DNA of 64,000 nt from Actinomycetes bacterium (GCA_023264975.1 JAHFUS010000008.1:7219-71218); one strand, 5' to 3'. Shown: positions 2,140-27,425, counted from the first letter of the stretch. A program made the numbers and translations. Notes: generated by a model from the sequence alone, not told the origin.

Positions 2140-5100
2140 CTATTGCAACGACACGATCGTGATGTCCGGGGCAACGGCGGAATCGAGGGAGTAGCCGACC
2201 CAGCCGAGATAGCGCTTGCCCGCATCAAGGCCACGCCACTTGGCGGTCAGTTGCGTGGGCGCGGCCTGCGCGACGGTGGTTGGGCTCGGGGAGACGGTCA
2301 GGTTGCCGGCGTCGACCGTTCCGATGACCCACGATGTGTACTTGTAAGAACCGCCGCTGCCTGTCTCGTAGCCGTTGACGTAAGCGGTGTACGTGCCCGG
2401 TACCGGGTTGCGCACGGTCACCTGCTCGTCGGCGTCTGCCGATGCGCTGTAGTCGAAGAACACGCCGTCCTTGTAGACGTACAGATCCAGGTCGTCGTTG
2501 TTGCTCGTGGTATCGACGTCGAACCGGAGCACCGAGGCTCCTGCCGCCGCCGACACGACGACTGTGTAGGACTTGGTCGAGGCGCCCACACTGGGTGCGC
2601 GAAGATCGAACGGCCCCGTCGCCACCGAATCGCTGGTCGGCGTCGACCCCACCAGGCCAGTCACCGAAGACGTCAGCGTTCCAGTGACACCCGGCGTCAC
2701 ATTGAACTGCTGCGATCCGGAGCCTGAGCCGACCGCACCGGTGATCTCCCGTGGAGCCGAGATGGCCACCGGTCGAACGGCCACCGGAATTCGCACTCGG
2801 TGGGTGCTGCCTTGAAACGTGATCTTGCCCTTGGCGTACTGGCCGAGCCTTCCGTCGGCATAGGTGATCGCCAATGACACGGTCCGCGAGGCACCCGCGG
2901 CCAACGTGAACGTGGAGGGAGTGGCCACGATCGAGAGGCCCGGCACGCCGGCGCTCACCGTGTAGGACTCGGACGAGGAGGAAACGTTCGTCACGGCGCG
3001 GGTGACGGTCCGGCTCCCAGCCATCGCGCCGATGGCGATGGACGCCTGGTTGAGATCTGGGCCGTCGAGCGGTGTCAGGGTGTCGTTGGGCGGCAGGAAG
3101 CGCACCCCGAGTGACACCATGTAGCGGCGCCAATCCACCGCAGCCGCGTCGAACACCAGCCCCGGGTCGAGAGCACCGTTCGGTTGGACGAAGCCGGCGC
3201 CCTGGTCGAACGGGTCGTCGGTCGACACGTGATCGCGAGTGGTCGTCATCAGCGCGGACTTGACCGCTGCCGGCGACCACGTGGGGTGCTTGGCCCGAAC
3301 GAGCGCAGCAAGACCTGCAATGTGCGGGGAGGCCATCGACGTACCTGAGAGGTAGTCGTAGCTCCGGCCGAAGTGGAACGGCGGCGCAACGGCAGCGACG
3401 ACGTCGACGCCCGGCGCCGAGATGTCCGGCTTGAGGATGTCGCCGCCCGTGGTTGTTGACGGACCACGCGACGAGAACGCCGCCACCTCGGGAACCTGCG
3501 TGGTCGACTCGCCCGGGTTCACGGCCGTGATCGCACCCGTGGCCGAGGAACCCTGGGCCGCTATATATGCCAGGATGGCGGTTCGAGCGACGTCGGGCAC
3601 ATGGACCGTCGGAACCGCGTGGAAGTCACCGTTGAGCGAGTTCGGGCTCGTGTTGGTGAGCACCATCCCGGCGCCCCCCGCCCGCTTCACCTCAAAGCTC
3701 TTGGCGATGCGGGCAATGACACCGCGGTCGCACTGGACGAGCTTTCCGGCGGTCTTGACCGGGTCGAGCGAACCGGGGTAACAGAGAGCGGCGTCGTGTG
3801 CGCTCGCAGTTGCGGTCCTGGCCGACAGCGAGGTCACGAGGGGCTTGACCGGAAGCGTTGCCGTGGTGGACGCCCCGACGAACCGCTTCCCGTTGCCAAG
3901 CTCGATCGCCTTCTCGGAGATGCGGAACGTGCTCGCCGCAACCGTGGTCAGCCAGGGGCTGGGGTGGTCGAGCGTGCTTGCGTCCGGTCCGCTGTTGCCA
4001 GCCGAGTTGGCCACGAAAACGTTGCTGTTCGCAGCAGCGCGGTAGGCCTGCTCGACCGCGCTCAGAACGCTGCTCTCGGTGCTGCCACCGACGGAGTAGT
4101 TGATGACGTCGACGCCGTCGGCAACAGCGTCGTTGATGGCTGCGACGGAATCGGTGTTGAAGCAGCCGTCATCTCCACCTGGCGCCGCCGTCCAGCAGAT
4201 CTTGTAGGCCGCGACGCGGGCGCCTGGCGCCATGCCGGACGCGGTCCCCTGGGGAGCGCCGTCGATACTGACTCCGGGAACACGGTTTCCGGCAGCGGTT
4301 GAGGCCGTGTGGGAGCCGTGACCGTCGCCATCACGTGGGGAGAGGTATTCCTCGTGGGCGATGTTCTTCTTGCCGAAGCCGCTGACGTAGTAGCGCGCCC
4401 CGATCAGCTTGTCGTTGCAGTTCTGCGAGCTGAAGAGCTCGCCTTGGACACAGGCGCCGAACCACTTGCCGCGCAGCCCTGTCGCCTCGACCGGATGACC
4501 GGCCGTGTCGCGCTTGAGCTCGCCGCCGGCAAATGAAGGGCTCTCTGGCCAGATGCCGGTGTCGATGACGCCGACGATGATGCTCCGTCCGGCCGTAGTG
4601 TTGCCGCCGAGCTGGCTCCAGGCTCCTCCTGTGGCGCCGAGCCCGAGGAACTCCGGCGAGTAGGTCGTGGTGATCTTCGCCAGAGCGTCCTTCTCGAGCG
4701 AAACGACGTCCTTGGCGCCCGAGAGCTTGCGAGCCTGCGAAGAACTCAGCTCGACGGCGACGCCGTTGTTGGTGACCGAGTAGTCGTAGAGCTTTGTGGC
4801 GCCGACTGCAGCCAAGGCGGCATCGTGGATCTGCGCGAGACGTCCGCGGTAGCGGATGACCTCGCCCCGGGTCGGGTCGAGCTTGTGTCCGGGTGCCGGG
4901 CGCGTGGGCGCGTACCCGGCGATACCGCCCTCGTAGGAGGCGGCTGGCTCATCGGCAAAGGTGACGATGTAGCGGCCCGCGGTGACGGCCTTGTCGTCGG
5001 CCGCGGCCTTCGACGACGGTGCGGCGTCCGGTTCGGCGGATGCGGTCGGCGTTGTCGCGGCGAGGCCGGCGATGGCAAGCGCCGCCGCCGCGGCTGCCGC

Positions 5101-5142
5101 CAAAGAGCGCCGGCTGCCCGCTAATCGAGGGATCGATGGCAC
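2140..5142 (-). CDS. Secreted subtilisin-like serine protease (S8 family; I9 propeptide, PA-type insert, C-terminal pre-peptidase-type domain)
   Basis: GTG start with AAGGA about 8 nt upstream. Signal peptide ends ...PTASA. Triad motifs: VGVIDTGI (Asp), GHGSHTASTAAG (His), SGTSMASPHIAG (Ser). C-terminal DLDLYVY...GTYTAYVNGY. Confidence 0.9.
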   Translation of the reverse strand: MPSIPRLAGSRRSLAAAAAAALAIAGLAATTPTASAEPDAAPSSKAAADDKAVTAGRYIVTFADEPAASYEGGIAGYAPTRPAPGHKLDPTRGEVIRYRGRLAQIHDAALAAVGATKLYDYSVTNNGVAVELSSSQARKLSGAKDVVSLEKDALAKITTTYSPEFLGLGATGGAWSQLGGNTTAGRSIIVGVIDTGIWPESPSFAGGELKRDTAGHPVEATGLRGKWFGACVQGELFSSQNCNDKLIGARYYVSGFGKKNIAHEEYLSPRDGDGHGSHTASTAAGNRVPGVSIDGAPQGTASGMAPGARVAAYKICWTAAPGGDDGCFNTDSVAAINDAVADGVDVINYSVGGSTESSVLSAVEQAYRAAANSNVFVANSAGNSGPDASTLDHPSPWLTTVAASTFRISEKAIELGNGKRFVGASTTATLPVKPLVTSLSARTATASAHDAALCYPGSLDPVKTAGKLVQCDRGVIARIAKSFEVKRAGGAGMVLTNTSPNSLNGDFHAVPTVHVPDVARTAILAYIAAQGSSATGAITAVNPGESTTQVPEVAAFSSRGPSTTTGGDILKPDISAPGVDVVAAVAPPFHFGRSYDYLSGTSMASPHIAGLAALVRAKHPTWSPAAVKSALMTTTRDHVSTDDPFDQGAGFVQPNGALDPGLVFDAAAVDWRRYMVSLGVRFLPPNDTLTPLDGPDLNQASIAIGAMAGSRTVTRAVTNVSSSSESYTVSAGVPGLSIVATPSTFTLAAGASRTVSLAITYADGRLGQYAKGKITFQGSTHRVRIPVAVRPVAISAPREITGAVGSGSGSQQFNVTPGVTGTLTSSVTGLVGSTPTSDSVATGPFDLRAPSVGASTKSYTVVVSAAAGASVLRFDVDTTSNNDDLDLYVYKDGVFFDYSASADADEQVTVRNPVPGTYTAYVNGYETGSGGSYKYTSWVIGTVDAGNLTVSPSPTTVAQAAPTQLTAKWRGLDAGKRYLGWVGYSLDSAVAPDITIVSLQ

Positions 5143-5382: not shown

Positions 5383-6021
5383 CTACCGGCAGTCCACGCA
5401 GAGCTCGGAGCCGGGTACGAACTGCCCGGGCGCCTTGTGCATCCGGCACGTCGGGCAGACCCGCGTGAGGTCCGGCTTGCTCCTCGGGGCGGTGACCGCC
5501 TTCGGCTTGGTGGCACGGGGCGTGCGGGCGGGCGCCGTCCGGTTCGTCCTGGCCGTCGCCGGCCGCGCGGGGGCGACGGGGGGAAGCGGCTCCGCCGGCA
5601 GGGGGAAGGGCGGGTCGGCGAGCATCAGGTCGCCCTCGAGGAAGGCGTCGTCGACCTCCTCGGGCACGTCCTGGTACCAGTTGCCCGTCTCGAAGCGCGT
5701 CGGGATGCGGCCTTCGGTGCGGAAGTACTGGTTGGGCCGGGACCCGGCCCCGAGCCGGTACCCGACGACCCAGCGCCGGCCCTTGGTCCATCGCACCAGG
5801 TACAGTTCGGGATTGCGCCACACGCCGGCTGCCACGCCGGTCGGCCCGTAGGCGGCGGCGCCCACGGGCGACGCCTCCTCCACCAGGCCCAGGGTGCGAA
5901 GTACCGCGCTGCCGGGGTCGCCCTTCACCGGCTCGATAAGGCTGATTCGCCGGCCTTCGATGTCGACGGCGAGCTTTTGACTGCGCAGGGTCTCCACCGC
6001 ATCCGCCATCGCGTCGTCCAC
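5383..6021 (-). CDS. Hypothetical protein with Pro/Ala/Arg-rich linker and C-terminal CxxC...CxxC zinc ribbon
   Basis: 212-aa ORF that no other supported gene overlaps. C-terminus is VCPTCRMH...LCVDCR. I recognise no family for the N-terminal ~130 aa. Confidence 0.5.
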   Translation of the reverse strand: MDDAMADAVETLRSQKLAVDIEGRRISLIEPVKGDPGSAVLRTLGLVEEASPVGAAAYGPTGVAAGVWRNPELYLVRWTKGRRWVVGYRLGAGSRPNQYFRTEGRIPTRFETGNWYQDVPEEVDDAFLEGDLMLADPPFPLPAEPLPPVAPARPATARTNRTAPARTPRATKPKAVTAPRSKPDLTRVCPTCRMHKAPGQFVPGSELCVDCR

Positions 6022-6172
6022 CCCCTCATGTTGCCCGCCGCACCGGGCCCGTGACCATGTGGGCCGCGTCGGCGCTGGTCAGGGCGTGCAGAGGTCGGCC
6101 GGCGAATCGAGGCAGCGGAGGCGGCGGCGGGCGGTCCCGAGCGCCGGGGCCAGGCTCAGGGGCGGAGTCGGC

Positions 6173-6916
6173 TCAGGAGTGGTCGCCCGGGCCGAGCAGG
6201 ATCTCGATATGGGAGGCGGGCATGTCCCGCGACACGACGGCCGCTGCGACGTCGGTCAGCTTGACGTTGTGCCCACGAGCGTAGGAACGCAGCCGCCGGA
6301 AGGCCTCGTCCACCCCAACGCCCGCCCGCTCCGCGATGACGCCTTTGGCCTGTTCGATGGTGATGCGACTGTCCAGGGCGCCCTGGAGCTGCGTAGTCAG
6401 CCGGTTGGCGTCGTCGGCCGCCCGGTCCTGCAGCAGCGCGATGGTGGCGGCGTGGGCGAACGCCTGGGCGAGGGCGACGTCAGCGGTGGCCAGCGGTCCG
6501 GCCTCGCCCATGAAGAGATTGAGGGTCCCGAGCACGGTGTCGCGGACCCCCATCGGAAACGCGTGCACCGATGGCAGCCCAGCCTCGACGGCCTTGGGCC
6601 CGAAGACGGGCCAGGGGCTGTTGGTCCCCAGATCGCCATGGACCACCGCTTTCCCGGTCCGGAACGCGTCGAGGCAGGGGCCTTCGTCGTTCTGGATCTG
6701 GAACAGCTCGAGCAAGTTGGCCCGCTCGCTCGACGCGGCGACGACATGAAGGTTTGGGTGGACGTCAGCGAGCAGGATCCCCGTCGCCGAGGCGCCGAGG
6801 AGGTCCACGCAGCGGCCGCTCAACATGGTCATCACGTCGATGACGTCGAAGTCCTCGACGAGGGTGTCGGCCAACTGCACGAAGGTGTCAGCTAGCAGCT
6901 CTTCACGGCTTGCCAC
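6173..6916 (-). CDS. GAF domain + ANTAR domain RNA-binding antiterminator-type regulator
   Basis: N-terminal GAF-like region (EGPCLDAFRTGKAV). C-terminal ANTAR pattern: ALDSRITIEQAKGVIAERAGVGVDEAFRRLRSYARGHNVKL. Confidence 0.85.
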   Translation of the reverse strand: MASREELLADTFVQLADTLVEDFDVIDVMTMLSGRCVDLLGASATGILLADVHPNLHVVAASSERANLLELFQIQNDEGPCLDAFRTGKAVVHGDLGTNSPWPVFGPKAVEAGLPSVHAFPMGVRDTVLGTLNLFMGEAGPLATADVALAQAFAHAATIALLQDRAADDANRLTTQLQGALDSRITIEQAKGVIAERAGVGVDEAFRRLRSYARGHNVKLTDVAAAVVSRDMPASHIEILLGPGDHS

Positions 6917-7163
6917 GTCGCACTTCCTTTCCTTGTACCCGCCACGATTCTACGGCGGTTCCCAGCGAGGGATGGGGCGGCGCGGAATCGTTCGGCGCCC
7001 AGGCAGCATGTCGGCGGCCTTGCGCCGTGTCGGCCGCGAAACAGCCGACCGATGAGGAACCCTGGCCTGCCCACCTCCAGATACCGCGGAGCCGGCGGTG
7101 GGGGTGCACTCCGACGAGAAGCCGTCTGCTGCCCTTTGAGGGACCGGGCCTACCCTGCGTGCG

Positions 7164-8054
7164 ATGACCCTGGAACCGCCCGACGACCTGGCCCGCCGAC
7201 TCCCAGTTGAGGCGGATCGGCGGGGCGGGAGCATCGACGACGTCGGGTCCGAGATCCTCGCCGCCGGGCTCCCGCCCGAAGACCTGGAACGACCGGCGGC
7301 TGAGGGGATCGGCTTCAGTGGGATCGCAACCGCAAGGGACCACGGCGCTGGGGTCGACAGCCGCACCGTGGGGGTGCGGGCTGCGCTGATAGGTATCGAA
7401 TCCGGGCAATCGTCATGGAACCAGGTATGTGTGGCGTGCGCCGAAGCGCTGTTGGTCACCGGCGCCGGCATCATCCTCCTGGCCGGCGGCGAGCAGCGCA
7501 CTTCGCTCGGGATGTCCGACGAGGTGGCGGGAGTAATCGAGGAGGCCCAGTTCACCCTGGGCGAGGGCCCGTGCGTGGACGCCGCCCGCTCGTCCGCCCC
7601 GGTGCACGCCCCGGACCTGGCCGGTCCGGGGCAGACGAGCTGGCCGACGTTCTCGGCCCGGGCGGTCGACGCCGGCGTGGCGGCCATCTTCGCCCTGCCC
7701 CTCAAGGTGGGTTCCGCCAGACTCGGGGCCATGAACCTGTACCGGGACCGCCCGGGACCGCTGTCCCACGAGCAACTGGAGGCCGCCCTGGCGATAGCGG
7801 ACGTGATGACCCATGCCATCCTTGCCCTGCAGGCGAATGCCCCGGCCGAGGCCCTGGCCGCCGGCCTGGTCGACGTCGGGTTCCGCGCCCAGGTCCACCA
7901 GGCGACGGGGCGGGTCAGTGCCCAGCTCGGCGTCGGCGTCGCCGAGGCACTGGTTCGACTGCGGGCCTTCGCCTACGCGCAGGATCGCCCCATCGACGAG
8001 GTGGCGGCCATGGTGGTGTCCGGCACCCTCCGCTTCGACGACGACTCGCCCTGA
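7164..8054 (+). CDS. GAF domain + ANTAR domain regulator (paralogue of 6173-6916) with ~80-aa N-terminal extension
   Basis: GAF-like LGEGPCVDAARSSAPV. ANTAR pattern FRAQVHQATGRVSAQLGVGVAEALVRLRAFAYAQDRPI. The start codon is uncertain. Confidence 0.8.
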   Translation: MTLEPPDDLARRLPVEADRRGGSIDDVGSEILAAGLPPEDLERPAAEGIGFSGIATARDHGAGVDSRTVGVRAALIGIESGQSSWNQVCVACAEALLVTGAGIILLAGGEQRTSLGMSDEVAGVIEEAQFTLGEGPCVDAARSSAPVHAPDLAGPGQTSWPTFSARAVDAGVAAIFALPLKVGSARLGAMNLYRDRPGPLSHEQLEAALAIADVMTHAILALQANAPAEALAAGLVDVGFRAQVHQATGRVSAQLGVGVAEALVRLRAFAYAQDRPIDEVAAMVVSGTLRFDDDSP

Positions 8055-9601: not shown

Positions 9602-10438
9602 TCAGAGGAACGAGTCGAGAACCTCGTTGATCCCGGCCAGCACCGGTCCGTCGCCCAGCGAGATGCCGGCGCCGGCGCGGTCGGCCTCAACGATCCCGGG
9701 GTCGTCGGGGACGATCCCGGCCAGGGGGATACCAAAGCCGCGGGCGGCGTCGTGGAAGGTGACGGGGTCGAGTTGGCGCCCCTTGTTGCCGACGAGGGCG
9801 ACCCGCTCGATCCCGTGCCTGGTCGCCATGGTGAACATCCGCTCAGCGGTGACGGAGGACTTGCGGCTCGGTTCCATCACGATCAGCAGCAGGTCGGTGT
9901 GCGCCACCGTGCCACTCGATCGCTCCAGGTGATCGAGGCCGGCTTCGAGGTCGAGCAGGGCGACGTCGGCCTCGCCGTCGAGCGCCGCTGCCAACAGGCC
10001 GCGCGAGGACGCGTGGGCCGGGCACCAGCATCCCCCGGGGTCGTCGCTGACGCGCATGGCGTGGAGGAGGGTGACGCCCGACGGCGTGGTGGTCCCGAAG
10101 CTGGTTACCAGCTGGTCGGTCGTGACGGCGCCGCCTCCCCAGCCGGCCACCAACGCCCGGGGCACCTCTCGCGCCTGGTCCACTGCGGCCTGCGAGAGCC
10201 CCAGGCTGATGCCCAGGTTCGGACTCACGTCGGTGTCGACGGCCAGCGTGCGCAGTCCCCGCGACGCGCAGGCCATGGCCACCAGCGCGGTGACGGTGGT
10301 CTTTCCCGAACCGGTCTTGCCCGTGACACCGACTCTGATGGCTCCGGCCTCCTGCGTGGCTGGCGTTGCAAGCTTGCGGCGGCGACCATAGCCAGTGTGT
10401 GCAAGGACGCGCTGTTCCGGGCGGGCACCGGGCTCCAT
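9602..10438 (-). CDS. CooC-type (MinD/ParA superfamily) nickel-insertion accessory ATPase
   Basis: Deviant Walker A GVTGKTGSGKTT, and the CxC metal motif PGGCWCPAH expected of CooC. The start is ambiguous. ATG at 10438 is used here. A strong AGGAGG lies 8 nt before an ATC at 10339, which would give the canonical (M)RVGVTGK N-terminus. Confidence 0.7.
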   Translation of the reverse strand: MEPGARPEQRVLAHTGYGRRRKLATPATQEAGAIRVGVTGKTGSGKTTVTALVAMACASRGLRTLAVDTDVSPNLGISLGLSQAAVDQAREVPRALVAGWGGGAVTTDQLVTSFGTTTPSGVTLLHAMRVSDDPGGCWCPAHASSRGLLAAALDGEADVALLDLEAGLDHLERSSGTVAHTDLLLIVMEPSRKSSVTAERMFTMATRHGIERVALVGNKGRQLDPVTFHDAARGFGIPLAGIVPDDPGIVEADRAGAGISLGDGPVLAGINEVLDSFL

Positions 10439-10808
10439 CGACGACTCCATCGACGACGCCCTCGACGTGTTCCCCCCGCTGCGCAGGCTGCTCGACCGGC
10501 CCGCCGGCCTGCTCTCCGGTGGCCAGGCCCAGCAGCTGGCGATCGCCCGGGCGTTGGTCTCGAAGGCCCAGGTGCTGGTGCTCGACGAGCCCACCGAGGG
10601 CATCCAGCCGTCGATCATCATCGAGATCGAGGACGCCATAGCCGGCCTGCACGCGGCGGGGATGACGATCCTGCTGGTGGAGCAGTACGTGGAGTTCGCC
10701 CTGCGTCTGGCGCAGCGTCACGCGGTGATGGACGGCGGCCTCATCGCCCACTCGGGCGACACGGCGTCGGTCGACCTGGCCACGTTCTCGGATCTGCTCG
10801 CCGTCTGA
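10395..10808 (+). pseudogene. 3' fragment of a urea/branched-chain-type ABC ATPase (UrtE/LivF-like); the Walker A half is missing
   Basis: It encodes only LSGGQAQQLAIARAL, VLVLDEPTEGIQPSII and LLVEQY (signature, Walker B, H-loop). The upstream DNA is occupied by the opposite-strand CooC-like gene, and no Walker A is present in any + frame. Confidence 0.7.
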
Positions 10809-10811
10809 GAA

Positions 10812-11693
10812 TCAGCCCAGCCGGTCGCGCAGCAGGGCGGCCGCCTCCAGGGGGTCGCCGTAGTTGAGGCGCCATGCCTGCGCCTTGCGGGCCAGGGTGG
10901 CGAGCAGGTGGAAGGACTCGGTCGGGTGCTTGTAGTGGTTGAACGAGCGCTGGAACAACCAGGTCATGGCCTCGCCCCGGGGCGCCGGCGTCAGCTCGCA
11001 TCCTCGGGCGTCGCCGTCGAGGGCCGGTTGGAGGTGGACGATATGGGCCAGGTCGAGGGGTGCCGTCACCGTGCGCGCGCCAATCTGGTCGGCGGTGATG
11101 GCGACCTCGCCGTCTCCGAGCTCGATGCCGGCGATGTCGTCGAGTGCCACGGCGTGGCGACTCCACGGTGAGAGGGCGAGGGCGCGCGGGTAGGGGACCG
11201 GACGCCTCGTGGCCGGGTCGACGCACAGGGCCTCGTCGGACACGTAGTCGAAGCCGGCCACAAGCCCGGCGGCGGCGAACGTCGTCTTGCCGGTGCCCGA
11301 CGGTGCCGGGAAGGCGATGGCCGACGAACCGGAAGCGACGACGCCGGCATGCACAGCCAAGCCGGCGAAGGCGTCGATGGCGGCCTCGTTGACGGCCGTG
11401 AGGACCGCCGCCAGAGCGACGCCCGGCGGACCCGACACGTCGAGCTCGCCGGTGGTGGCGTGCAGGCAGCGGTCGTGGCCGTGCCGCTCACATCCGTCGA
11501 CGACCGCGTACCGCTTGGCCGAAGCCGGCCCACCGGCGACCTTCGGGAACGCCTCGAACAGCTGCGCGATGGCGGCGGCCACCTCGTTCGACGTGCAGGT
11601 GATCCGGAACGCTGTGCCGAGCAACTCCCAGGTGACGTCGTGGACGGATTCCCCGACGACAGGGCCGGCGGTATCGCCCCTGCCCGGCGTCAC
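10812..11693 (-). CDS. HprK-related (HPr kinase-like) P-loop serine kinase of the RiPP-accessory type
   Basis: P-loop FPAPSGTGKTT followed by GFDYVSDEAL. The GTG start overlaps the PqqD stop (GTGA, 11693-11690). No HPr or PTS context is present. Confidence 0.7.
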   Translation of the reverse strand: MTPGRGDTAGPVVGESVHDVTWELLGTAFRITCTSNEVAAAIAQLFEAFPKVAGGPASAKRYAVVDGCERHGHDRCLHATTGELDVSGPPGVALAAVLTAVNEAAIDAFAGLAVHAGVVASGSSAIAFPAPSGTGKTTFAAAGLVAGFDYVSDEALCVDPATRRPVPYPRALALSPWSRHAVALDDIAGIELGDGEVAITADQIGARTVTAPLDLAHIVHLQPALDGDARGCELTPAPRGEAMTWLFQRSFNHYKHPTESFHLLATLARKAQAWRLNYGDPLEAAALLRDRLG

Positions 11694-11974
11694 CCCCCGG
11701 CCGGCATAAGCAGGCCGTCGTCGCGCAAACGGCCGACGGTGGCGGCCACCTCGGCCCGAATGGACTCGGGGGTGGCGCCGTAGGCGACGGCCAGGGCGGC
11801 GACCACCCCGTCGAGGGTGAGCTCGCCGTCGCTGAGGCGCCAGACGTCGGCCGCCGTGGCGTTGAGGACGTAGACCTGGCTCGAGTCGGGATGGAGGAGG
11901 GCGATGCTCTCGTCGACCTCGGTCTCGACCACGCCGTGAACGGCTGGCCCGACCCTCGCACCGGCGTCGTCCAC
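11690..11974 (-). CDS. PqqD-family peptide chaperone (RiPP recognition element)
   Basis: 94 aa. SIALLHPDSSQVYVLNATAADVWRLSDGELTLDGVVAALAVAYG...IRAEVAATVGRLRDDGLL matches the PqqD/RRE winged-helix pattern. GTG start. Confidence 0.75.
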   Translation of the reverse strand: MDDAGARVGPAVHGVVETEVDESIALLHPDSSQVYVLNATAADVWRLSDGELTLDGVVAALAVAYGATPESIRAEVAATVGRLRDDGLLMPAGG

Positions 11975-12034
11975 GGTGCCGAGGCTACCGCTGTGGGGCG
12001 GCGGTGGTCTGGCGGACGGCAGTCAGCAATACGA

Positions 12035-12063
12035 TTGACTCATATTGGAAGAATTGCTACGCT
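12035..12063 (+). promoter_or_regulatory. Candidate sigma-70-type promoter (TTGACT-N17-TACGCT) facing the Tat-signal mini-ORF
   Basis: Hexamers read directly: TTGACT at 12035-12040, TACGCT at 12058-12063, 17-nt spacer. They lie inside a ~54% GC island; adjacent coding sequence is visibly more GC-rich. Confidence 0.3.
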
Positions 12064-12137
12064 GAGCGGTCAAGCGACCATTTCCCTTATCGAGCGGAAA
12101 CTCTGCGTGTCGAGGAAGCAGTGCTCACCGGACGTGT

Positions 12138-12157
12138 CAGAAGTTCTCTGACTTCTG
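12138..12157. repeat. Perfect 7-bp inverted repeat CAGAAGT-N6-ACTTCTG in the divergent control region
   Basis: Read directly. It lies between the candidate promoter and the ATG at 12224, so it could be an operator or a 5'-UTR hairpin. Confidence 0.5.
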
Positions 12158-12223
12158 GTTTGAGACCCGGATTTCGGGGAATAGATATGCGATCAGTGGC
12201 AGTCAAACTACTGGGGGCGGTAC

Positions 12224-12412
12224 ATGGACGAGAAGCGTGACGGTGGGTTGTCCCGGCGGGACGCGCTGAAGAGGGGCGCCGTCGTTGCCAGTGCGGCGTG
12301 GATCGCGCCGGCAGTGATGGCGCTGCCTGTGAGCAGCGCTTCGGCTGACTCCCCGAGTGGGACGTCGACGAAGCCGAAGAAGACCAAGGTGCACCTGCTG
12401 GGGAACCGCTAG
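12224..12412 (+). CDS. 62-aa mini-protein with twin-arginine (Tat) signal and a 21-aa Ser/Thr/Lys-rich tail
   Basis: GGGGGCGG lies 4 nt before the ATG. SRRDALK fits the S/T-R-R-x-F-L-K consensus. A hydrophobic region ends in ASA, leaving DSPSGTSTKPKKTKVHLLGNR. Third-codon positions are GC-rich, consistent with coding. Confidence 0.5.
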   Translation: MDEKRDGGLSRRDALKRGAVVASAAWIAPAVMALPVSSASADSPSGTSTKPKKTKVHLLGNR

Positions 12413-12455
12413 CACCGAGCCGTTCGGCGGCTGCGCTCCACCGCCGCCGGCATCG

Positions 12456-13667
12456 TCAGTGCGTGTGGCGCCGCTCCTCGGCGGCGATGGCCTCGAGGAA
12501 CTCTTGGCGGTCCGCATCCGAGCCTTCGTCATGGCGAGGCGAGTTCAGGCTGGTCGGGTCCATGTCGGGAGCGAATGGCGCCAGCGACAGCCTCGCCCTC
12601 GGTGGTAGGGCGGCGCGCAGCCGGCGCCGGAACTCGATCGCGGTCGACGCCGTGCCGGCGCGGGCGGACCGGGACAGGAGCAGGGCGATGGAGCGGCTCC
12701 CGCCGGACCGGGCAGGCGGGGCGACCAGGTCCACCGCCCCGCCCGCCACCAGATAGGCGCGCCCGCCCGCCATCGCCTCGGGCACGCCCGCGGGCACGGG
12801 CACGGCGAGGACCCTCCGGGCCCGGCTCAAGGCGAGGGCGACCGCCGGCCCCATGCCCCAGGAGCGGGCGCGGGCGACCAGGTCGTCCCAGTTCGCACCG
12901 CCGGCGATGACCCGTTCCAGGTCCTTGAGCCACACCAACCGGTGCCCACCTGACAGCGTGGCGTGCGCGCCCAGGTGGACGAGGGTGTCGAGCGGGTCGA
13001 GTGTGCGTATGGCCGTCCCCCCCACCCGGGCCGGTCGTGCCCGTTCCGCCAACTCGGCCATCGACGGCCTGAAGGTCCGCCGCACGGCCGGTCCGGTGAA
13101 CAGGTGCCAGTGGAGGTCGAGGAGCGTTTCGTGGCGGAGCCGGAGCAGCACTTCGCCCACCTGGAGCTCGCGCAGGAGCCGCCAGTTGCGGTCGAGCAGG
13201 GTCGCGCCCTGCTCCCCGAGTGCGGTCAGGACGTCGCCCACGGCACTGGCGGGCACCACGACGTCGAGATCCGAGTACGAGCGGAGATCGGGCCGGGTGT
13301 AGTGCAGCTCGGCCAGGACCGGCCCCTTCACCACCAGCCACGACACGCCCAGGGCGTCGAGGGTAGGGCCCAGCTGGGCCAGGTCGCCGAGCGCCCGCAC
13401 GTGGCGGTCCACGCCGCGGTGGTGGGCGGCGGCCAGCCCGGCGAAGCGCCCGGCGCTGACGACCGGGGCCAGGCTGTGGTGCACGCATCCGCTGACACCG
13501 TGGAACTCGGCGGCGGCGGCCACCCGGTCAGGTCCGGCCAGGTCGGCCAGTGCCGCCACACCGTCCGGCGCCGTGGCCCAGTCGTGTTCGGTCACGCATC
13601 GCCGGAGGAGCCGGGCCGTCGCCGTGGCCGCGCCCAGCACTCGGGACCGGCGGGCCGGCCCCGTCAC
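12456..13667 (-). CDS. Nucleotidyltransferase family protein (uncharacterised NTP_transf_5 / PF14907 type)
   Basis: YSDLDVVVP and LLDLHWHLF motifs. GTG at 13667 overlaps the CHAT gene stop (GTGA, 13667-13664), so I prefer this start to the 466-aa ORF start. Confidence 0.75.
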   Translation of the reverse strand: MTGPARRSRVLGAATATARLLRRCVTEHDWATAPDGVAALADLAGPDRVAAAAEFHGVSGCVHHSLAPVVSAGRFAGLAAAHHRGVDRHVRALGDLAQLGPTLDALGVSWLVVKGPVLAELHYTRPDLRSYSDLDVVVPASAVGDVLTALGEQGATLLDRNWRLLRELQVGEVLLRLRHETLLDLHWHLFTGPAVRRTFRPSMAELAERARPARVGGTAIRTLDPLDTLVHLGAHATLSGGHRLVWLKDLERVIAGGANWDDLVARARSWGMGPAVALALSRARRVLAVPVPAGVPEAMAGGRAYLVAGGAVDLVAPPARSGGSRSIALLLSRSARAGTASTAIEFRRRLRAALPPRARLSLAPFAPDMDPTSLNSPRHDEGSDADRQEFLEAIAAEERRHTH

Positions 13668-15943
13668 GTCGCGGGAGCGGGAGCGGCGGCGGCGGCGGCC
13701 TCCGGCTCGGTGAGGCGCAGGTGGGCCCAGCAGTGCGCGGTGTAGACGAGCCCGAAGAGGTTGCCCGACGCCAGGAAGTCGAAGCGGGCGGCCTGGAGGG
13801 CGGCGCCGATCTGTGCGTCGGGCTGCAGGAGGGCAGCGAAGAAGGCCTCGGCCCACGCCATGGCCTGGAGTTGGGGCACCTTCACTTCGGTGCCGATCAC
13901 CCCGACCGCGTTGCCGCCCCCCACGAAGGCGTCGACGTACGACACCAGGGTGGCCGGCGTGATCTCGAGCGAGTGGCAGGCGTTGATGACGACGAGCGGC
14001 CGCACCCGGTCCCAGATGACCTTGTTCTCGGCGAAGCCGGCGTCGAAGAGGTCGATGAGCTCGGTGGCCGTGATCTGCTCACGGTCGCCGACGGACAAGA
14101 AGGTGTCCGGGCTGCCGACCTGGTCCTTGTCGCCGTGGCAGTAGAAGTAGACAACCGGCAGGTCGGCCGACAAGAGGCCGAGGATGTCCTTCTTGGCGGC
14201 GCTCTCCTGCACCAGCACCCCGGCGAAGCGGGACTCGAACAGCGACCGCAGCTTCTGCACGTGGGCGGCCAGCGCCTTCTGGTCGACCTTCCTCGACTCG
14301 CCGACGGCCACCACCGCCTCGGGCGCGACCGGTATCGACGCAGTGGGGTCCTTGGAGGATGCGGGGGCCTCGATCATCTGGGTGAAGCCCCAAAAGCCGA
14401 ACGGGCAGAGCAGGTCCTTGGTGTGAGGCACGTCACCCGCCCGGGGGCAGGTGTCTGTGGGCCCGGCGACAAGGGGGCTGCGCTCGTCCCACTCCGTCAC
14501 CAGGGGGCACACGGGCACGTCGCGGACGTCGTCCGGCAGGCCGATCTCGTAGAGGTAGTTCCACGGCACGGTGAAGCGGACGTTGCGGGGCCGGGCGATG
14601 TGCACGATGGGCCTGGGTGACGTACGACGCAGCTCGCCGAGCACGTCGCGCGCCTGGAGGAACAACTGGCGGTAGAGCTGGCGGCCGAGCGGGGCCAGCT
14701 CCCGCAGGTCGTCGACGAGGTCCTCCTTCGTGCGCATCCGCTGGTCGGCGGCCCGGTAGACAAGGGCCTTGCGCAGGTCGCCCACCAGCGGGCCGATGGT
14801 GTCGTCGGGCAGCGAGAAGGCGGTGGCCTCCGCCGGCATCTCGCCAGGGGGGCGCAGCACGATGCCGTGGGCACCCCCGTCGTTCGTGTTGGTGACGATG
14901 CTGAAGCGAGGCGTGTCGGGGATGGTCTCGAGGTCGTCGAGTGCGGCCGACGCTGTGTAGTCGGTGGTGATGGTGAAGCCACCCGGTCCATCGAGGTCGG
15001 TGACGAGGACCTGTGACTGCACCGGAGCGTCGCGGTAGTAGTAGCCGATGCGGGCCCGTGCCGGGCCGGCCGCCGGCACCCGGAGGGCGACGTCGATCCA
15101 CGGCTGACCGCTGTCCAGCGCGGTCGCCGGGCTGCCGTCGGCAGGCAGATGGAACGCCTGCTCCACCGAGCGCTGGTCCCGGTCGAGGTCGTCGAACGTC
15201 GTCGCCACTGCGAAGTCGGCGCTGGTCACCAACACCCGCAGTTCGAGGTCGCGCTTGGGGAGCACTTCGTCGGGGAAGGCGACGGGCCCGGTCACGTGGG
15301 TGCCTCGGTCGAGAGGGCCGATGCTGAGGCGGAGGCGGAGATCGGCATGGGGAACCAGGGGAAGCGCCTCGTCGAGCCGTTCGCCTCCGCTGTCGGCGAC
15401 GACCGCGTTCGCGTACCTGGTGCGGGCCCGGACGGCGCGGGCGGGCGAGGGGGACTGGGGGCCCGGGAGCGGCGCGGGCGGCTTGCTCCTCGGCTTGGCC
15501 GGTGCCGGAGATGCTGGTGGAGGCAGGTTGCGACGAACGGGAGGTGAAGGCGGTAGTGCTGCGTCGGGAGTGTGGGGCGCGCCGCCGGGAAGGGACCGCG
15601 GAACCGGCTCCGGGATGAAGAGCTCGCCGGTCGGCAAGGGGTCCTCGTACGGCGGGACCGGAGGGAGGGGAGCGCTCTGGGGCGGCGAAGCCCCGGGCGT
15701 CGCGGCCGCGGGCTGAGCGGACTCTGGCGGGTGGGCCGGCACCGGCGGCGCCGACGGCGGGCCGGGCGAAGGAGGGGCGCCGACGGCGGGGCCGTGGCGC
15801 CGGCCGAGACGCGGCAGCCGGAAGCGGGGGAGCCTGGACGGCCCGCCGACGGTGGTGGGGCCTCCGGTCGAGCCCGGCCCGCGGAACAGACCGGAGAGGG
15901 CGGCCCCCACCGCCCTGATCCTGGCCAGCAGCCACTCGACCAT
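13664..15943 (-). CDS. CHAT-domain (caspase-like) protease with N-terminal helix, ~140-aa proline-rich spacer and an unassigned middle region
   Basis: C-terminal ~200 aa carry the His motif VVYFYCHGD and the Cys motif LVVINACHS. They are preceded by LCPFGFWGF. I recognised no TPR, NACHT or SAVED sensor. Confidence 0.8.
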   Translation of the reverse strand: MVEWLLARIRAVGAALSGLFRGPGSTGGPTTVGGPSRLPRFRLPRLGRRHGPAVGAPPSPGPPSAPPVPAHPPESAQPAAATPGASPPQSAPLPPVPPYEDPLPTGELFIPEPVPRSLPGGAPHTPDAALPPSPPVRRNLPPPASPAPAKPRSKPPAPLPGPQSPSPARAVRARTRYANAVVADSGGERLDEALPLVPHADLRLRLSIGPLDRGTHVTGPVAFPDEVLPKRDLELRVLVTSADFAVATTFDDLDRDQRSVEQAFHLPADGSPATALDSGQPWIDVALRVPAAGPARARIGYYYRDAPVQSQVLVTDLDGPGGFTITTDYTASAALDDLETIPDTPRFSIVTNTNDGGAHGIVLRPPGEMPAEATAFSLPDDTIGPLVGDLRKALVYRAADQRMRTKEDLVDDLRELAPLGRQLYRQLFLQARDVLGELRRTSPRPIVHIARPRNVRFTVPWNYLYEIGLPDDVRDVPVCPLVTEWDERSPLVAGPTDTCPRAGDVPHTKDLLCPFGFWGFTQMIEAPASSKDPTASIPVAPEAVVAVGESRKVDQKALAAHVQKLRSLFESRFAGVLVQESAAKKDILGLLSADLPVVYFYCHGDKDQVGSPDTFLSVGDREQITATELIDLFDAGFAENKVIWDRVRPLVVINACHSLEITPATLVSYVDAFVGGGNAVGVIGTEVKVPQLQAMAWAEAFFAALLQPDAQIGAALQAARFDFLASGNLFGLVYTAHCWAHLRLTEPEAAAAAAPAPAT

Positions 15944-16210
15944 TCAGTCTCCGCCCAGCCATCTGGTGTCCTTCAGAACGGTGACCCCGAGGATCAGGTA
16001 GCCGAAGAAGCCGACGAAGAGGCCGATGCTGTACCAGGCGAACAGGCGGGCGCCGTCGAACATGGTCGTCACGGCTGCGCCGCCAACGGCGCCGATCACC
16101 GAGGCGATGTCGGAGATGGCCACCGCCTCTCTGGAGCGGCGCAACGTGCGGTAGGTCACCCAGCCGATCACCACGCCGAAGCACCACGCGCCAGCGGCTT
16201 GGGTCTGCAT
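15944..16210 (-). CDS. Small (88 aa) predicted three-helix membrane protein, first gene of the CHAT operon
   Basis: Three hydrophobic stretches: WCFGVVIGWVTY, IASVIGAVGGAAVTTMF, WYSIGLFVGFFGYLILGVTVL. Its stop is directly followed by the CHAT start (TGAATG, 15946-15941). Confidence 0.6.
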   Translation of the reverse strand: MQTQAAGAWCFGVVIGWVTYRTLRRSREAVAISDIASVIGAVGGAAVTTMFDGARLFAWYSIGLFVGFFGYLILGVTVLKDTRWLGGD

Positions 16211-25270: not shown

Positions 25271-26038
25271 ATGGCCCCCCTCGTGATGGGCGTGCTCAAC
25301 GTGACCCCTGATTCGTTCTCCGACGGCGGGCGTTTCGTCGACCCCCGGCGGGCGGTGGCCCACGGCCTCGCATTGGCCGCCGAAGGGGCGGACGTGGTCG
25401 ACGTGGGCGGCGAGTCCACCCGCCCCGGAGCGGCGCCGGTCGACGAGGCCGAGGAACTGCGCCGGGTGCTCCCCGTGGTGGAGGCGCTGGCCCCTCACGT
25501 GCGGGTGTCGATCGACACCACCAAGGCGGCGGTGGCGGCGGCCGCCCTGGAGGCGGGCGCCACCCTGGTGAACGACGTCTCCGCGTCACTGCACGACGTG
25601 GCGGCGGCTGCGGGCGCCGGATGGGTGGCAATGCACCGCCAGGGCGACCCCCGGTCCATGCAGGTGGCACCTGCCTACGACGACGTGGTGGCCGATGTGG
25701 TCGCCTTCCTCGTCGAGCGGGCGGAGGCGGCCCGGCAGGCCGGCGTCACCGAGGTCTGGGTCGACCCCGGCATCGGCTTCGGCAAGCTGGCCCGTCACAA
25801 CCTCCTTCTGCTGCGCCATCTCGACGTGTTGGTCGCCACCGGCCTCCCGGTCGTGGTGGGCACCAGCCGCAAGTCGTTCCTCGGCGCCCTCGCCGGCGGC
25901 ACACCCCCCGATGACCGCCTGGAGGGCTCCCTGGCCACCGCCGTGGTGGCCATGGCGAGCGGCGCCTGCATGGTGCGGGTGCACGACGTGGCCGCCACCG
26001 TGCAGGCCGCCCGCCTCGTGGGGGACGTGGCGGCATGA
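25271..26038 (+). CDS. folP: Dihydropteroate synthase
   Basis: MGVLNVTPDSFSDGG, DVGGESTRPG, DPGIGFGK motifs. ATG at 25271 lies within the longer ORF. Confidence 0.9.
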   Translation: MAPLVMGVLNVTPDSFSDGGRFVDPRRAVAHGLALAAEGADVVDVGGESTRPGAAPVDEAEELRRVLPVVEALAPHVRVSIDTTKAAVAAAALEAGATLVNDVSASLHDVAAAAGAGWVAMHRQGDPRSMQVAPAYDDVVADVVAFLVERAEAARQAGVTEVWVDPGIGFGKLARHNLLLLRHLDVLVATGLPVVVGTSRKSFLGALAGGTPPDDRLEGSLATAVVAMASGACMVRVHDVAATVQAARLVGDVAA

Positions 26039-26529
26039 GGGGCAAGTGGGCGGCGGGGCTGCCCCCCCGCAACTTCACCTGGATCATCAGGGACTCTCTC
26101 GCCGTGAGCGAGCGGCCGGGCGGCTACGCCCGCAACCACCGCCGGGTCCGCCGCCAGGAGGAGATCATCTGGCTGCGGGAGCAGGGCTTCAGCCGGGTCG
26201 TCTCCCTGCTGGGCTCGCCCCACAACCTGCACGCATACGACGAATTGGGCGTCACCTGGGCGCACATCCCGTTCAGCACCCTCGACGAGCCCCGCACGGT
26301 CCTGCCCGAGCTCTACGGCCGGCTCCAGGGGTGGCTGGCGGCGGGCGAGAAGGTCCTCGTCCACCAGGAGGACCTGGGGGACCGCATCATGGGCGTCATG
26401 GCCGGGTACCTGCTCGTCACCAAGATGATCGAGACAGGGCCCCAGGCCATCGCCGTGGTGGAGCGCATCGTGGCGCGCCAGATGGGTCCCGACGGCCGCC
26501 AGCTGGTCGCCCTCGCCCCCACCCTCTAG
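26035..26529 (+). CDS. Dual-specificity-phosphatase-fold protein lacking the catalytic Cys (HQEDLGDR in place of HCxxGxxR)
   Basis: ATGA overlap with the folP stop (26035-26038), and its stop abuts the folB GTG. Its layout matches the DSP fold: ...WAHIPFSTLDEP... (general-acid region) followed by GEKVLVHQEDLGDRIMGVMAGYLL. Confidence 0.6.
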   Translation: MRGKWAAGLPPRNFTWIIRDSLAVSERPGGYARNHRRVRRQEEIIWLREQGFSRVVSLLGSPHNLHAYDELGVTWAHIPFSTLDEPRTVLPELYGRLQGWLAAGEKVLVHQEDLGDRIMGVMAGYLLVTKMIETGPQAIAVVERIVARQMGPDGRQLVALAPTL

Positions 26530-26910
26530 GTGCCGCCAGTGCCCGCCGGCGACGTGATCGAGTTGCGGGGACTGCGGGTCCTCAGCCGCCACGGCTGCCT
26601 CCCCGAGGAGAAGGAGCGGGACCAGCCCTTCGAGGTCGACCTCGACATCCACCTCGACCTGTCAGGAGCCGGGCAGTCGGACGACCTGGGCGACACGCTG
26701 GACTATGGCGGGATCGCCGTGGCGGCGGCGGCCATCGTCGCCGGCCCGCCAGCCCACCTGCTCGAGCGGGTGGCCGAGCGCATCGCCGGCGCCGTGCTCG
26801 CCGACGCCCGGGTGACGGCCGTCACCGTCGCCGTGCGCAAGCTGCGCCCACCCGTGCCGGTCGACCTGGCCACCGCCGGTGTGCGCATCACCCGGCACCG
26901 GCCGGCCTAG
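26530..26910 (+). CDS. folB: Dihydroneopterin aldolase
   Basis: IELRGLRVLSRHGCLPEEKERDQPFEVDLDI...DLGDTLDYG pattern. GTG start directly after the preceding stop. Confidence 0.85.
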   Translation: MPPVPAGDVIELRGLRVLSRHGCLPEEKERDQPFEVDLDIHLDLSGAGQSDDLGDTLDYGGIAVAAAAIVAGPPAHLLERVAERIAGAVLADARVTAVTVAVRKLRPPVPVDLATAGVRITRHRPA

Positions 26911-26924
26911 CGGGCGGCGGCGGC

Positions 26925-27371
26925 GTGCGGGTCTTCGTCGCTCTCGGCTCCAACCTGGGCGACCGCCGAGCCCACCTGTGCGCCGCGGTGGAAGGCCTTC
27001 CCGGCGTCGTCGCGGTGTCCGGCGTCTACGAGACCGACCCGGTCGGCGGCCCCGGCGGGCAGCCGCCATACCTGAACGCCGTGGTCGAGCTGGAGACCGA
27101 TCTGTCGCCGCGGGCGCTGCTCGGCATCGGCCAGGGCCTGGAGGCGGCGGCCGGCCGGGTGCGGGATACGCGGTGGGGGCCCCGCACGCTCGACGTCGAC
27201 ATCCTGCTGGTGGGCGACCTCACCGTCGACGAACCCGACCTCACCGTGCCGCACCCGCGCCTGCGCGAGCGGGCGTTCGTGCTCGTCCCCCTTCACGATG
27301 TGGCGCCCGATCTGGTGGGGCGCCGCCCTGTCGACGGGTCGGTCCGGCCCGCCGGCCGGCTGGAGTCGTAG
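26925..27371 (+). CDS. folK: 2-amino-4-hydroxy-6-hydroxymethyldihydropteridine pyrophosphokinase
   Basis: VFVALGSNLGD, WGPRTLDVDILL, VPHPRLRERAFVLVPL motifs. GTG at 26925 lies within a spurious longer ORF. Confidence 0.9.
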   Translation: MRVFVALGSNLGDRRAHLCAAVEGLPGVVAVSGVYETDPVGGPGGQPPYLNAVVELETDLSPRALLGIGQGLEAAAGRVRDTRWGPRTLDVDILLVGDLTVDEPDLTVPHPRLRERAFVLVPLHDVAPDLVGRRPVDGSVRPAGRLES

Positions 27372-27425
27372 GAGCGAACGCACCCGTTTCGGTGGTGGTT
27401 TCAGATGTCCTGCCGATGAGACATC

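Follow-up and report, generated by a model that had tools for sequence, protein, structure and literature searches.

A small actinobacterial gene whose twin-arginine signal may also serve as the leader of a modified peptide

Why would a cell place a near-consensus twin-arginine translocation (Tat) signal in front of a cargo of only 21 residues? The question is raised by a 62-codon open reading frame (ORF) in a 64,000-nucleotide stretch of DNA from an Actinomycetes bacterium (GCA_023264975.1, JAHFUS010000008.1:7219-71218; hereafter the window), which lies beside genes for a PqqD-family protein, a HprK-like kinase and a nucleotidyltransferase. An earlier interpretation made from the bases alone (the sequence-only reading) suspected from this placement that the ORF is a precursor or substrate gene. 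That suspicion is supported by a WxxPxV motif in the leader, by the closeness (1 kb or less) of 10 of 29 related leader ORFs to a kinase gene, and by the enzymes found next to short homologues in 11 of 12 informative contexts. The best explanation is a four-gene module made up of the precursor, a PqqD-type recognition element for peptides that are synthesized ribosomally and modified after translation (RiPP recognition element, RRE), a HprK-like Ser kinase and a PF14907 nucleotidyltransferase. A related pathway, that of the linear polyphosphorylated peptides (LPP; genes lppA-K-B-S-D-N), was described in 2026 from Paenibacillus alginolyticus DSM5050, where it was said to occur in Bacillota only (Popov et al., Nat Commun 2026, PMC13381572). 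We consider it probable, with moderate confidence, that the module is a Tat-dependent actinobacterial variant of LPP, in which a PqqD-docked precursor would be phosphorylated at Ser45 and perhaps decorated further by the nucleotidyltransferase before passing through Tat and being cut by signal peptidase I. The parts of the gene on which this proposal turns are as follows.

12224..12412, plus strand: precursor ORF MDEKRDGGLSRRDALKRGAVVASAAWIAPAVMALPVSSASADSPSGTSTKPKKTKVHLLGNR, 62 amino acids (aa) plus stop, with ATG at 12224 and stop at 12410-12412; orthologues share the synteny
12213..12217, plus strand: Shine-Dalgarno-like GGGGG, 6 nt 5' of the ATG, from direct reading of the sequence
12224..12346, plus strand: leader and Tat signal peptide, residues 1-41, from the leader profile search and conservation table
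12251..12271, plus strand: twin-arginine motif S10-R-R-D-A-L-K16, from conservation among top hits and a TIGR01409 score above cut-off
12299..12316, plus strand: W-I-A-P-A-V, residues 26-31, candidate RRE-binding motif within the hydrophobic region, from conservation and its fit to the lasso/LPP leader motif
12338..12346, plus strand: A39-S-A41, predicted signal peptidase I site with putative cleavage after A41, from conservation
12347..12409, plus strand: predicted core or mature peptide DSPSGTSTKPKKTKVHLLGNR, 21 aa, translated from the predicted ASA cleavage site onward
12356..12358, plus strand: Ser45, residue +4 of the predicted mature peptide and candidate phosphorylation site, from conservation and analogy to LPP

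In its description of the gene the sequence-only reading was accurate throughout. The GGGGG, the SRRDALK motif, the hydrophobic region (residues 18-36, 19 residues with a mean Kyte-Doolittle value of 1.8) and the ASA motif are all present; the tail of about 21 residues is exactly 21, with six Ser/Thr and a net charge of +4; and the ORF is divergent from the PqqD and kinase genes and convergent with the PF14907 gene. The pattern at residues 10-16 is the textbook Tat consensus, and AxA is a signal peptidase I site. The NCBIfam model TAT_signal_seq (TIGR01409) scores the ORF at 17.3 bits, just over its cut-off of 16.7, and the Pfam TAT_signal model gave no match to it at E <= 0.01.

The 62-codon ORF is a real gene and not a fragment. 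The GC content of third codon positions (GC3) is 0.84 in its frame as against 0.57-0.60 in the other two plus-strand frames; neighboring genes have values of 0.90-0.92, and an antisense ORF at 12203-12532 was rejected as a true gene at a GC3 of merely 0.65. An orthologue of 63 aa with identical neighbors occurs in another species of the same genus (G002, a metagenome-assembled genome labelled Acidimicrobiales). Close relatives from metagenomes encode 59 and 66 aa; gene callers predicted the 66-aa one in each of three independent assemblies, always with the same synteny, and both ORF length and stop position are maintained across species. Conservation at syntenic loci, a check that the sequence-only reading had proposed, thus extends to another species and, with the same synteny, to another genus. 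Compared with the G002 orthologue, residues 5-48 show eight synonymous changes and one nonsynonymous change, whereas the last 14 residues show no synonymous changes, five nonsynonymous changes and one codon indel. Hence, the leader is under strong purifying selection and the tail varies freely apart from its composition.

When 1.84 billion representative proteins were searched with a profile built from 13 leaders, 2332 clusters matched at E <= 1e-3, 424 of them at E <= 1e-10. The conservation counts are for the query aligned to 149 hits, taken from the best 150 of the 2332 clusters. R11, R12, G18, W26 and P29 occur in all 150 sequences, as does V, I or M at position 31; [ST]10, A39 and A41 are each found in 149, Q32 in 145, L15 and G23 in 141 each, and K16 in 137. 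Position 45 is Ser in 141 and Thr in two more. The family members that were looked up are all named "hypothetical protein". Matches from Bacteroides and Haloarcula, seen in narrower locus scans, were set aside as generic Tat-signal matches.

W-x-x-P-x-[VI] is not known as a feature of Tat signals, and a Ser kept four residues past the cleavage site is not explained by export alone. The discrete recognition elements of lasso and LPP systems bind the pattern [Y/W]xxPx[L/V/I/F/A] as a beta-strand (PMC13381572), and W26-x-x-P29-x-V31 fits this pattern. Residues 1-41 seem to be dual, a working Tat signal and at the same time an RRE leader. This supports, and refines, one option of the sequence-only reading, a Tat-leader-like sequence reused as a RiPP leader. 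Its remark that the Ser/Thr-rich tail would suit a Ser kinase holds in part: a Ser target is supported, but the tail in general is not a likely target, the better candidate being S45 at +4 after ASA.

The enzymes that would act on this leader are encoded on the opposite strand, on either side of the ORF.

11690..11974, minus strand: PqqD-family RiPP recognition element, 94 aa (Pfam PF05402, 8.8e-16)
10812..11693, minus strand: HprK-like P-loop kinase, 293 aa, its start overlapping the PqqD stop (NCBIfam HprK_rel_A, TIGR04352, 2.7e-18)
12456..13667, minus strand: PF14907 (NTP_transf_5) nucleotidyltransferase (Pfam, 2.2e-34), with the frame open to 13856
11975..12223, no strand assigned: divergent intergenic region, from composition

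The AlphaFold2 model of the PqqD protein (predicted local distance difference test score, pLDDT, 83.6) has as its best folds in the Protein Data Bank (PDB) the leader-bound lasso RREs TbiB1 (5V1U/5V1V) and TfuB1 (6JX3), with TM scores of 0.76-0.85 and a root mean square deviation of about 2 Å. These two proteins, whose structures were solved with YxxP leader peptides, are also its top sequence hits in the PDB. All of 11 orthologues have N38, and each has D or E at position 75. By our reading of a sequence alignment made through TfuB1, these positions would correspond to N33 and D70 of LppB, which hold the leader's kinked Pro and its aromatic residue in place (PMC13381572); the LppB and PbaB1 structures (9X8Z, 9X90) were not among the PDB search matches, and the comparison uses the residues named in that paper.

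The Walker A motif of the kinase, SGTGKT (SGxGKT), is invariant. Its model (pLDDT 91.4) matched the folds of ATP-dependent phosphoenolpyruvate carboxykinases (PEPCK) and of HprK/P, which share one P-loop kinase fold; the fold search alone produced these, the search of the PDB by sequence giving no match. The nucleotidyltransferase, which probably starts at a GTG at 13667 and whose orthologues are called as 380-404 aa, belongs to the same Pfam family as the "NTP transferase" (LppN) in the LPP supplementary data. The intergenic region has a GC content of 56% compared to 72% for the whole window. A promoter and terminator scan found no sigma-70 consensus in it and one weak terminator-like hairpin at 12136-12152, and an Rfam scan of 11800-12600 returned chance-level matches only.

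The link between leader and kinase goes beyond this one locus. The genome itself has exactly three leader-bearing ORFs, each beside one of its three HprK-like kinase genes, and the arrangement of a kinase followed by a leader protein recurs in the same family of genomes. Across 151 genomes in an order-level census, the profile found 29 leader ORFs in 15 genomes, and TIGR04352-like kinases were found in 41. A kinase is present in 13 of the 15 leader-positive genomes as compared to 28 of the 136 others (p = 6e-7, Fisher test). Ten of the 29 leader ORFs lie no more than 1 kb from a kinase gene, where 0.15 or fewer would be expected (P about 2e-16), a roughly 70-fold excess. In Motilibacter deserti (NZ_JAANNP010000001, L041 5968-8365) the PqqD and HprK-like kinase domains are fused in one protein (6517-7635, minus strand), and on either side lies a protein of about 180 aa that bears the same leader. 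By Rosetta-stone reasoning, RRE and kinase would act together on leader proteins.

The other two leader ORFs of the genome encode Cys-rich proteins of about 170 and 240 aa and lie outside the window on contig C102, in a cluster at 25500-32300 (25524-26111, plus strand, and 27445-28203, minus strand). HprK-like kinases are found there at 26147-26950 (plus) and about 28328-29107 (minus), together with a 265-aa unknown gene and two PqqD genes, of which one encodes a His-rich N-terminus. Further along the contig there is an MsbA-like pair at 35.4-38.1 kb, and the upstream ORFs at 18.7-24.0 kb we take, by eye and without family search, to be CapD-like and Wzz/BY-kinase polysaccharide genes. A second kind of fusion occurs in L012 (387-1325, G007:C375), where a PqqD domain is joined to a TlpA-like thioredoxin domain (WSPTCGFC) with a His-rich tail, and the gene lies between a kinase and a leader-bearing Cys-rich protein.

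The cargo behind the leader falls into long and short forms. Among the top 150, the predicted mature part has a median length of 121 aa; the long forms have a median of six Cys, and some contain DUF7467. A mini class of 19 clusters has a mature part of 16-45 aa that is free of Cys and rich in Gly, Lys, Arg and Pro. Thirteen of these begin xxPSG, and P44-S45-G46 is invariant in 13 mini forms. The 21-residue peptide of the window is typical of the class, which has still shorter members of 16, 18 and 20 aa. The sequence-only reading had proposed searching for homologous mini-ORFs next to PF14907 and PqqD genes, and they exist: kinase, PqqD and/or PF14907 are immediately adjacent in 11 of the 12 informative cases (the window, G002, G017/P0014, P0003, P0004, P0012, P0021, P0080, P0137, P0149 and P0111). 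P0150 and P0054 were left out as uninformative, their contigs being too short; the downstream neighbor in P0054 is not a nucleotidyltransferase.

Two further loci may be described here. In G003, of the same genus, the mini homologue (L004 1477-1719, G003:C36) has about 81 aa and a DRPSG... tail. By eye and without family search, we take its neighbors to be aat (leucyl/phenylalanyl-tRNA-protein transferase) and a 5'-3' exonuclease. The PqqD-kinase pair of this genome is on another contig (L021, G003:C108) and has no precursor or PF14907 gene beside it. L007 (G024:C5:257152-260259) holds three tandem leader paralogues of 138-164 aa (DRRSLIKK...WVAPAV...AHA-QAS); no HprK-like kinase was detected in this genome, which is 74% complete.

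A number of observations pull away from the proposed phosphopeptide module. RR, W, P and AxA were already part of the profile whose best hits supplied the conservation counts, the Ser45 figure being the least biased, and the association statistics treat genomes as independent. No kinase lies within 8 kb of 17 of the 29 order-level leader ORFs or in the flanking few kilobases read at loci L042-L044, and none was detected in two of the 15 leader-positive genomes. The exception among the 12 mini contexts is of the G003/P0090 type: G003 keeps the PqqD-kinase pair, but its mini homologue sits at an unrelated locus. The kinase scores 66 bits where the curated cut-off of TIGR04352 is 200, and its best fold matches are PEPCK, not HprK. 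A literature search found no paper linking twin-arginine signals with RREs, no precedent for an RRE that binds a hydrophobic signal region, and nothing on PF14907/HprK-related systems beyond the LPP and lasso work. Because so many leaders lack a nearby kinase, the idea that WxxP could be a lineage-typical feature of Tat signals instead of an RRE handle keeps some weight.

The rival explanation that survives best builds on this idea. The gene would then encode an ordinary small secreted or surface peptide, exported unmodified behind the lineage's usual Tat signal, with PqqD, kinase and nucleotidyltransferase acting elsewhere or only in regulation. The leader genes without a nearby kinase, the two leader-positive genomes without a detectable one and the G003 homologue away from its PqqD-kinase pair all speak for it. 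It must also accommodate the roughly 70-fold excess of leader-kinase adjacency, the enzymes adjoining 11 of 12 informative mini forms and a module that holds no other candidate substrate gene, and a plain signal peptide leaves the invariant W and P and a 94%-conserved Ser unexplained. We judge it unlikely.

That the leader family is exported appears from the same-order homologues of two uncultured Actinomycetota (L040 and L056), in which nucleotidyltransferase, kinase, PqqD and precursor are arranged as in the window. Their precursors (5986-6417 and 3992-4354, respectively) end in LPFTG, a transmembrane segment and basic residues, which is a sortase signal, preceded by Ser/Gly-rich or short linkers, and sortase signals work only on exported proteins. 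One LPFTG precursor, with merely about 31 residues between AxA and LPFTG, in effect amounts to a mini form anchored to the wall. In P0110 the sortase motif takes the variant form LATTG. As for the route, the [ST]RRxxLK motif, the 19-residue hydrophobic region and ASA are all present, and the genome has genes for two TatC proteins and for at least two LepB proteins of the bacterial type. No SipW-type peptidase (TIGR02228) is found among the cluster neighbors, the sole match over cut-off in the genome being on another contig (C74:38140-38502). There is likewise no MsbA-like exporter in the cluster, and the TIGR02203 matches on contig C54 are to the ATPase domain only and more than 10 kb away. 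The sequence-only reading found a 21-residue Tat cargo odd. Since Tat is said to transport small unstructured hydrophilic proteins (Richter et al. 2007, JBC 282:33257, as cited in PMC9436932), such a cargo is unusual but not forbidden. Its suggestion of a hitch-hiker subunit finds no support, there being no gene for a partner Tat cargo nearby.

These findings bear on a second rival, in which the leader is purely cytoplasmic and only mimics a Tat signal, RR and LK serving enzyme recognition, with release by some other protease and export by some other transporter. RiPP leaders are usually not export signals, and a candidate protease is at hand: a CHAT protease and an 88-aa ORF (window 13664-16210) follow the nucleotidyltransferase, as they also do in L045-47 and L071. 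L040, L051, L056 and L072 lack the CHAT protease, which is thus probably a module of its own that accompanies the cluster in certain lineages. Given in addition the complete [ST]RRxxLK, hydrophobic region and AxA at fixed spacing, the LPFTG signals of the same-order homologues and the Cys-rich, secreted-type domains of the long forms, this explanation is quite improbable.

We give a still poorer chance to an uncleaved, signal-anchored membrane mini-protein (N-terminus inside; basic tail re-entrant or outside) whose role would be to tether or regulate PqqD and the kinase at the membrane, not to be their substrate. With about 19 residues the hydrophobic stretch could cross a membrane, and it is basic on both flanks. 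Against this, AxA is conserved in 149 of 150 sequences, the same leader is found on large soluble Cys-rich and on LPXTG-anchored cargoes, and the hypervariable tail is unlike an interaction surface.

Finally, the first 45 or so residues do align to longer Tat proteins, which the sequence-only reading would have taken as the mark of a gene fragment; truncation does not follow, because the leader is modular and precedes cargoes of 16 to about 590 aa. A decaying N-terminal remnant of a larger Tat substrate, for which one can cite the alignment to the N-termini of 150-600 aa proteins and the truncated urtE gene next door, is thus hardly credible, and we rule it out because the short class is recurrent (19 of 150 clusters at below 50% identity, with its own invariant PSG motif), the more so as the leader is under strong purifying selection, length and stop position are kept across species and GC3 is intact.

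In the variant LPP pathway that we favor, PqqD would dock on the WxxPxV segment in the cytoplasm and present the precursor to the kinase, which would phosphorylate Ser45, possibly more than once. The nucleotidyltransferase may then add a further group to the Ser45 phosphate. Release from the RRE would free the signal for TatBC, and Tat, tolerant of small, unstructured, hydrophilic cargo as well as of cargo modified in the cytoplasm, would export the peptide. The housekeeping signal peptidase I (LepB) would cut after ASA to release DSP(pS)GTSTKPKKTKVHLLGNR, a cationic phospho(glyco)peptide of 21 residues, onto the cell surface, where the basic tail (an LPXTG anchor in relatives) would hold it at the anionic envelope. 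Tat and LepB would in this way replace the dedicated exporter and the SipW-like leader peptidase of the Bacillota LPP pathway.

A broader proposal, which we hold only tentatively and which may well prove wrong, is that these genes represent a large, unrecognized class in Actinomycetota. In such a class the Tat signal would itself be a RiPP-type leader read by PqqD, marking peptides as well as full-size secreted and wall-anchored proteins for cytoplasmic Ser phospho(glyco)sylation, with Tat and LepB in the roles of RiPP exporter and peptidase. If this is so, RRE-guided modification would extend from peptides to a regulon of exported proteins. The narrower pathway that we favor would itself carry LPP chemistry beyond Bacillota, with a private exporter and peptidase exchanged for housekeeping ones. 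It would also account for a Tat signal on 21 residues, as the decoration would be cytoplasmic and Tat is the route open to cargo that is already finished, bulky or charged. A part in constructing the cell surface is suggested by the LPXTG members and by the links to polysaccharide genes. The pattern [ST]RRxxLK[RK]GA..GG...W..P.VQ...M..AxA...S offers a handle for mining, finding thousands of candidate substrates annotated as hypothetical, and Motilibacter deserti is a culturable organism in which the system is testable.

Two other parts of the window can be noted briefly. Beside the kinase, a piece of an ABC ATPase gene at 10395-10808 is a truncated urtE-type gene. Relatives have intact counterparts, two ABC ATPase genes in L021 (2130-3592) and two ATPase plus two permease genes in L045 (129-3694); the genome has therefore lost most of that operon. 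A 1000-aa ORF at 2140-5142 (minus strand), which by eye (GTS motif and overall sequence, without family search) we take to be a subtilisin-like (S8) protease, has an RR-containing signal, GSRRSLAAAAAAALAIAGLAATTPTASA, without WxxP, and serves as an ordinary secreted enzyme for contrast.

How does the module compare to known systems? The proofreading chaperones of Tat (redox enzyme maturation proteins such as TorD and DmsD) are small cytoplasmic proteins that hold the Tat signal of a specific substrate until maturation is done. The likeness to PqqD is one of functional analogy only: TorD is an all-helical fold as opposed to the winged helix of an RRE, and these chaperones serve cofactor insertion, not covalent modification of Ser. 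Closer in sequence is the "HPr-rel-A system" of NCBIfam, TIGR04352 being the best match of the kinase (2.7e-18) and TIGR04353 matching PqqD (2.3e-5). Both scores are well below the curated cut-offs (66 versus 200 bits for the kinase, 25 versus 35 bits for PqqD), and the enzymes form a clade related to but distinct from that system, for which we know of no defined precursor.

In the phosphorylated lasso peptides paeninodin (PadeK) and pseudomycoidin (PsmK/PsmN), a HprK-homologous kinase phosphorylates a Ser of the precursor, sometimes several times, and the pseudomycoidin nucleotidyltransferase adds one or two hexoses to the phospho-Ser (PMC8498205; PMC13381572). The module resembles these systems in its kinase and nucleotidyltransferase and in an RRE that would recognize a WxxP leader. 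The pseudomycoidin nucleotidyltransferase is presumably of PF14907 too. The module differs from the lasso systems in having no macrolactam synthetase or B2 protease: neither an Asn-synthetase-like cyclase nor a transglutaminase-like B2 protease is found among the genes at 5.4-20 kb of the window or in the Pfam-called orthologous loci. The predicted core, DSPSGTSTKPKK..., shows no lasso ring logic: lasso cores start with G, A, S or C and have D or E at position 7-9, whereas the predicted core has no acidic residue there. Moreover, the modified Ser is C-terminal in the lasso peptides and predicted to be N-proximal here, and export there is by ABC pumps, not Tat. With no cyclase, no B2 protease and no lasso-type core, the module is not a lasso system.

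The LPP pathway remains the nearest relative. Ser3 of the core is the residue that its kinase phosphorylates, the leader is taken off by an enzyme resembling signal peptidases, and its precursors, of 35-200 aa, have a conserved N-terminus and a variable C-terminus (PMC13381572). Phosphorylation also alters how efficiently LppS cleaves. Common to both systems are a discrete PqqD-family RRE, a HprK-like kinase and an NTP_transf_5 nucleotidyltransferase without a lasso cyclase; precursors of very variable length, conserved at the N-terminus and variable at the C-terminus; a leader that contains [Y/W]xxPx[LVI]; a Ser a few positions past the point where the leader is cut (Ser3 in LPP, Ser+4 as predicted here); leader removal, again predicted here, by an enzyme of the type I signal peptidase kind; and polysaccharide genes often nearby (here the C102 cluster and L050). 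The differences are equally plain. The module belongs to Actinomycetota and not Bacillota, and its cluster has no SipW-like LppS and no MsbA-like LppD. Its leader is a full Tat signal with WxxPxV inside the hydrophobic region, whereas that of LPP is the soluble YxxPxVLxHQxIxFETxxS. Because three of the defining parts, the SipW-like peptidase, the MsbA-like exporter and the YxxPxVLxHQ leader, are not found and three others are shared, we have filed the module as one that works like LPP but as a variant and not a member, one whose cargo extends to folded Cys-rich domains and LPXTG-anchored proteins.

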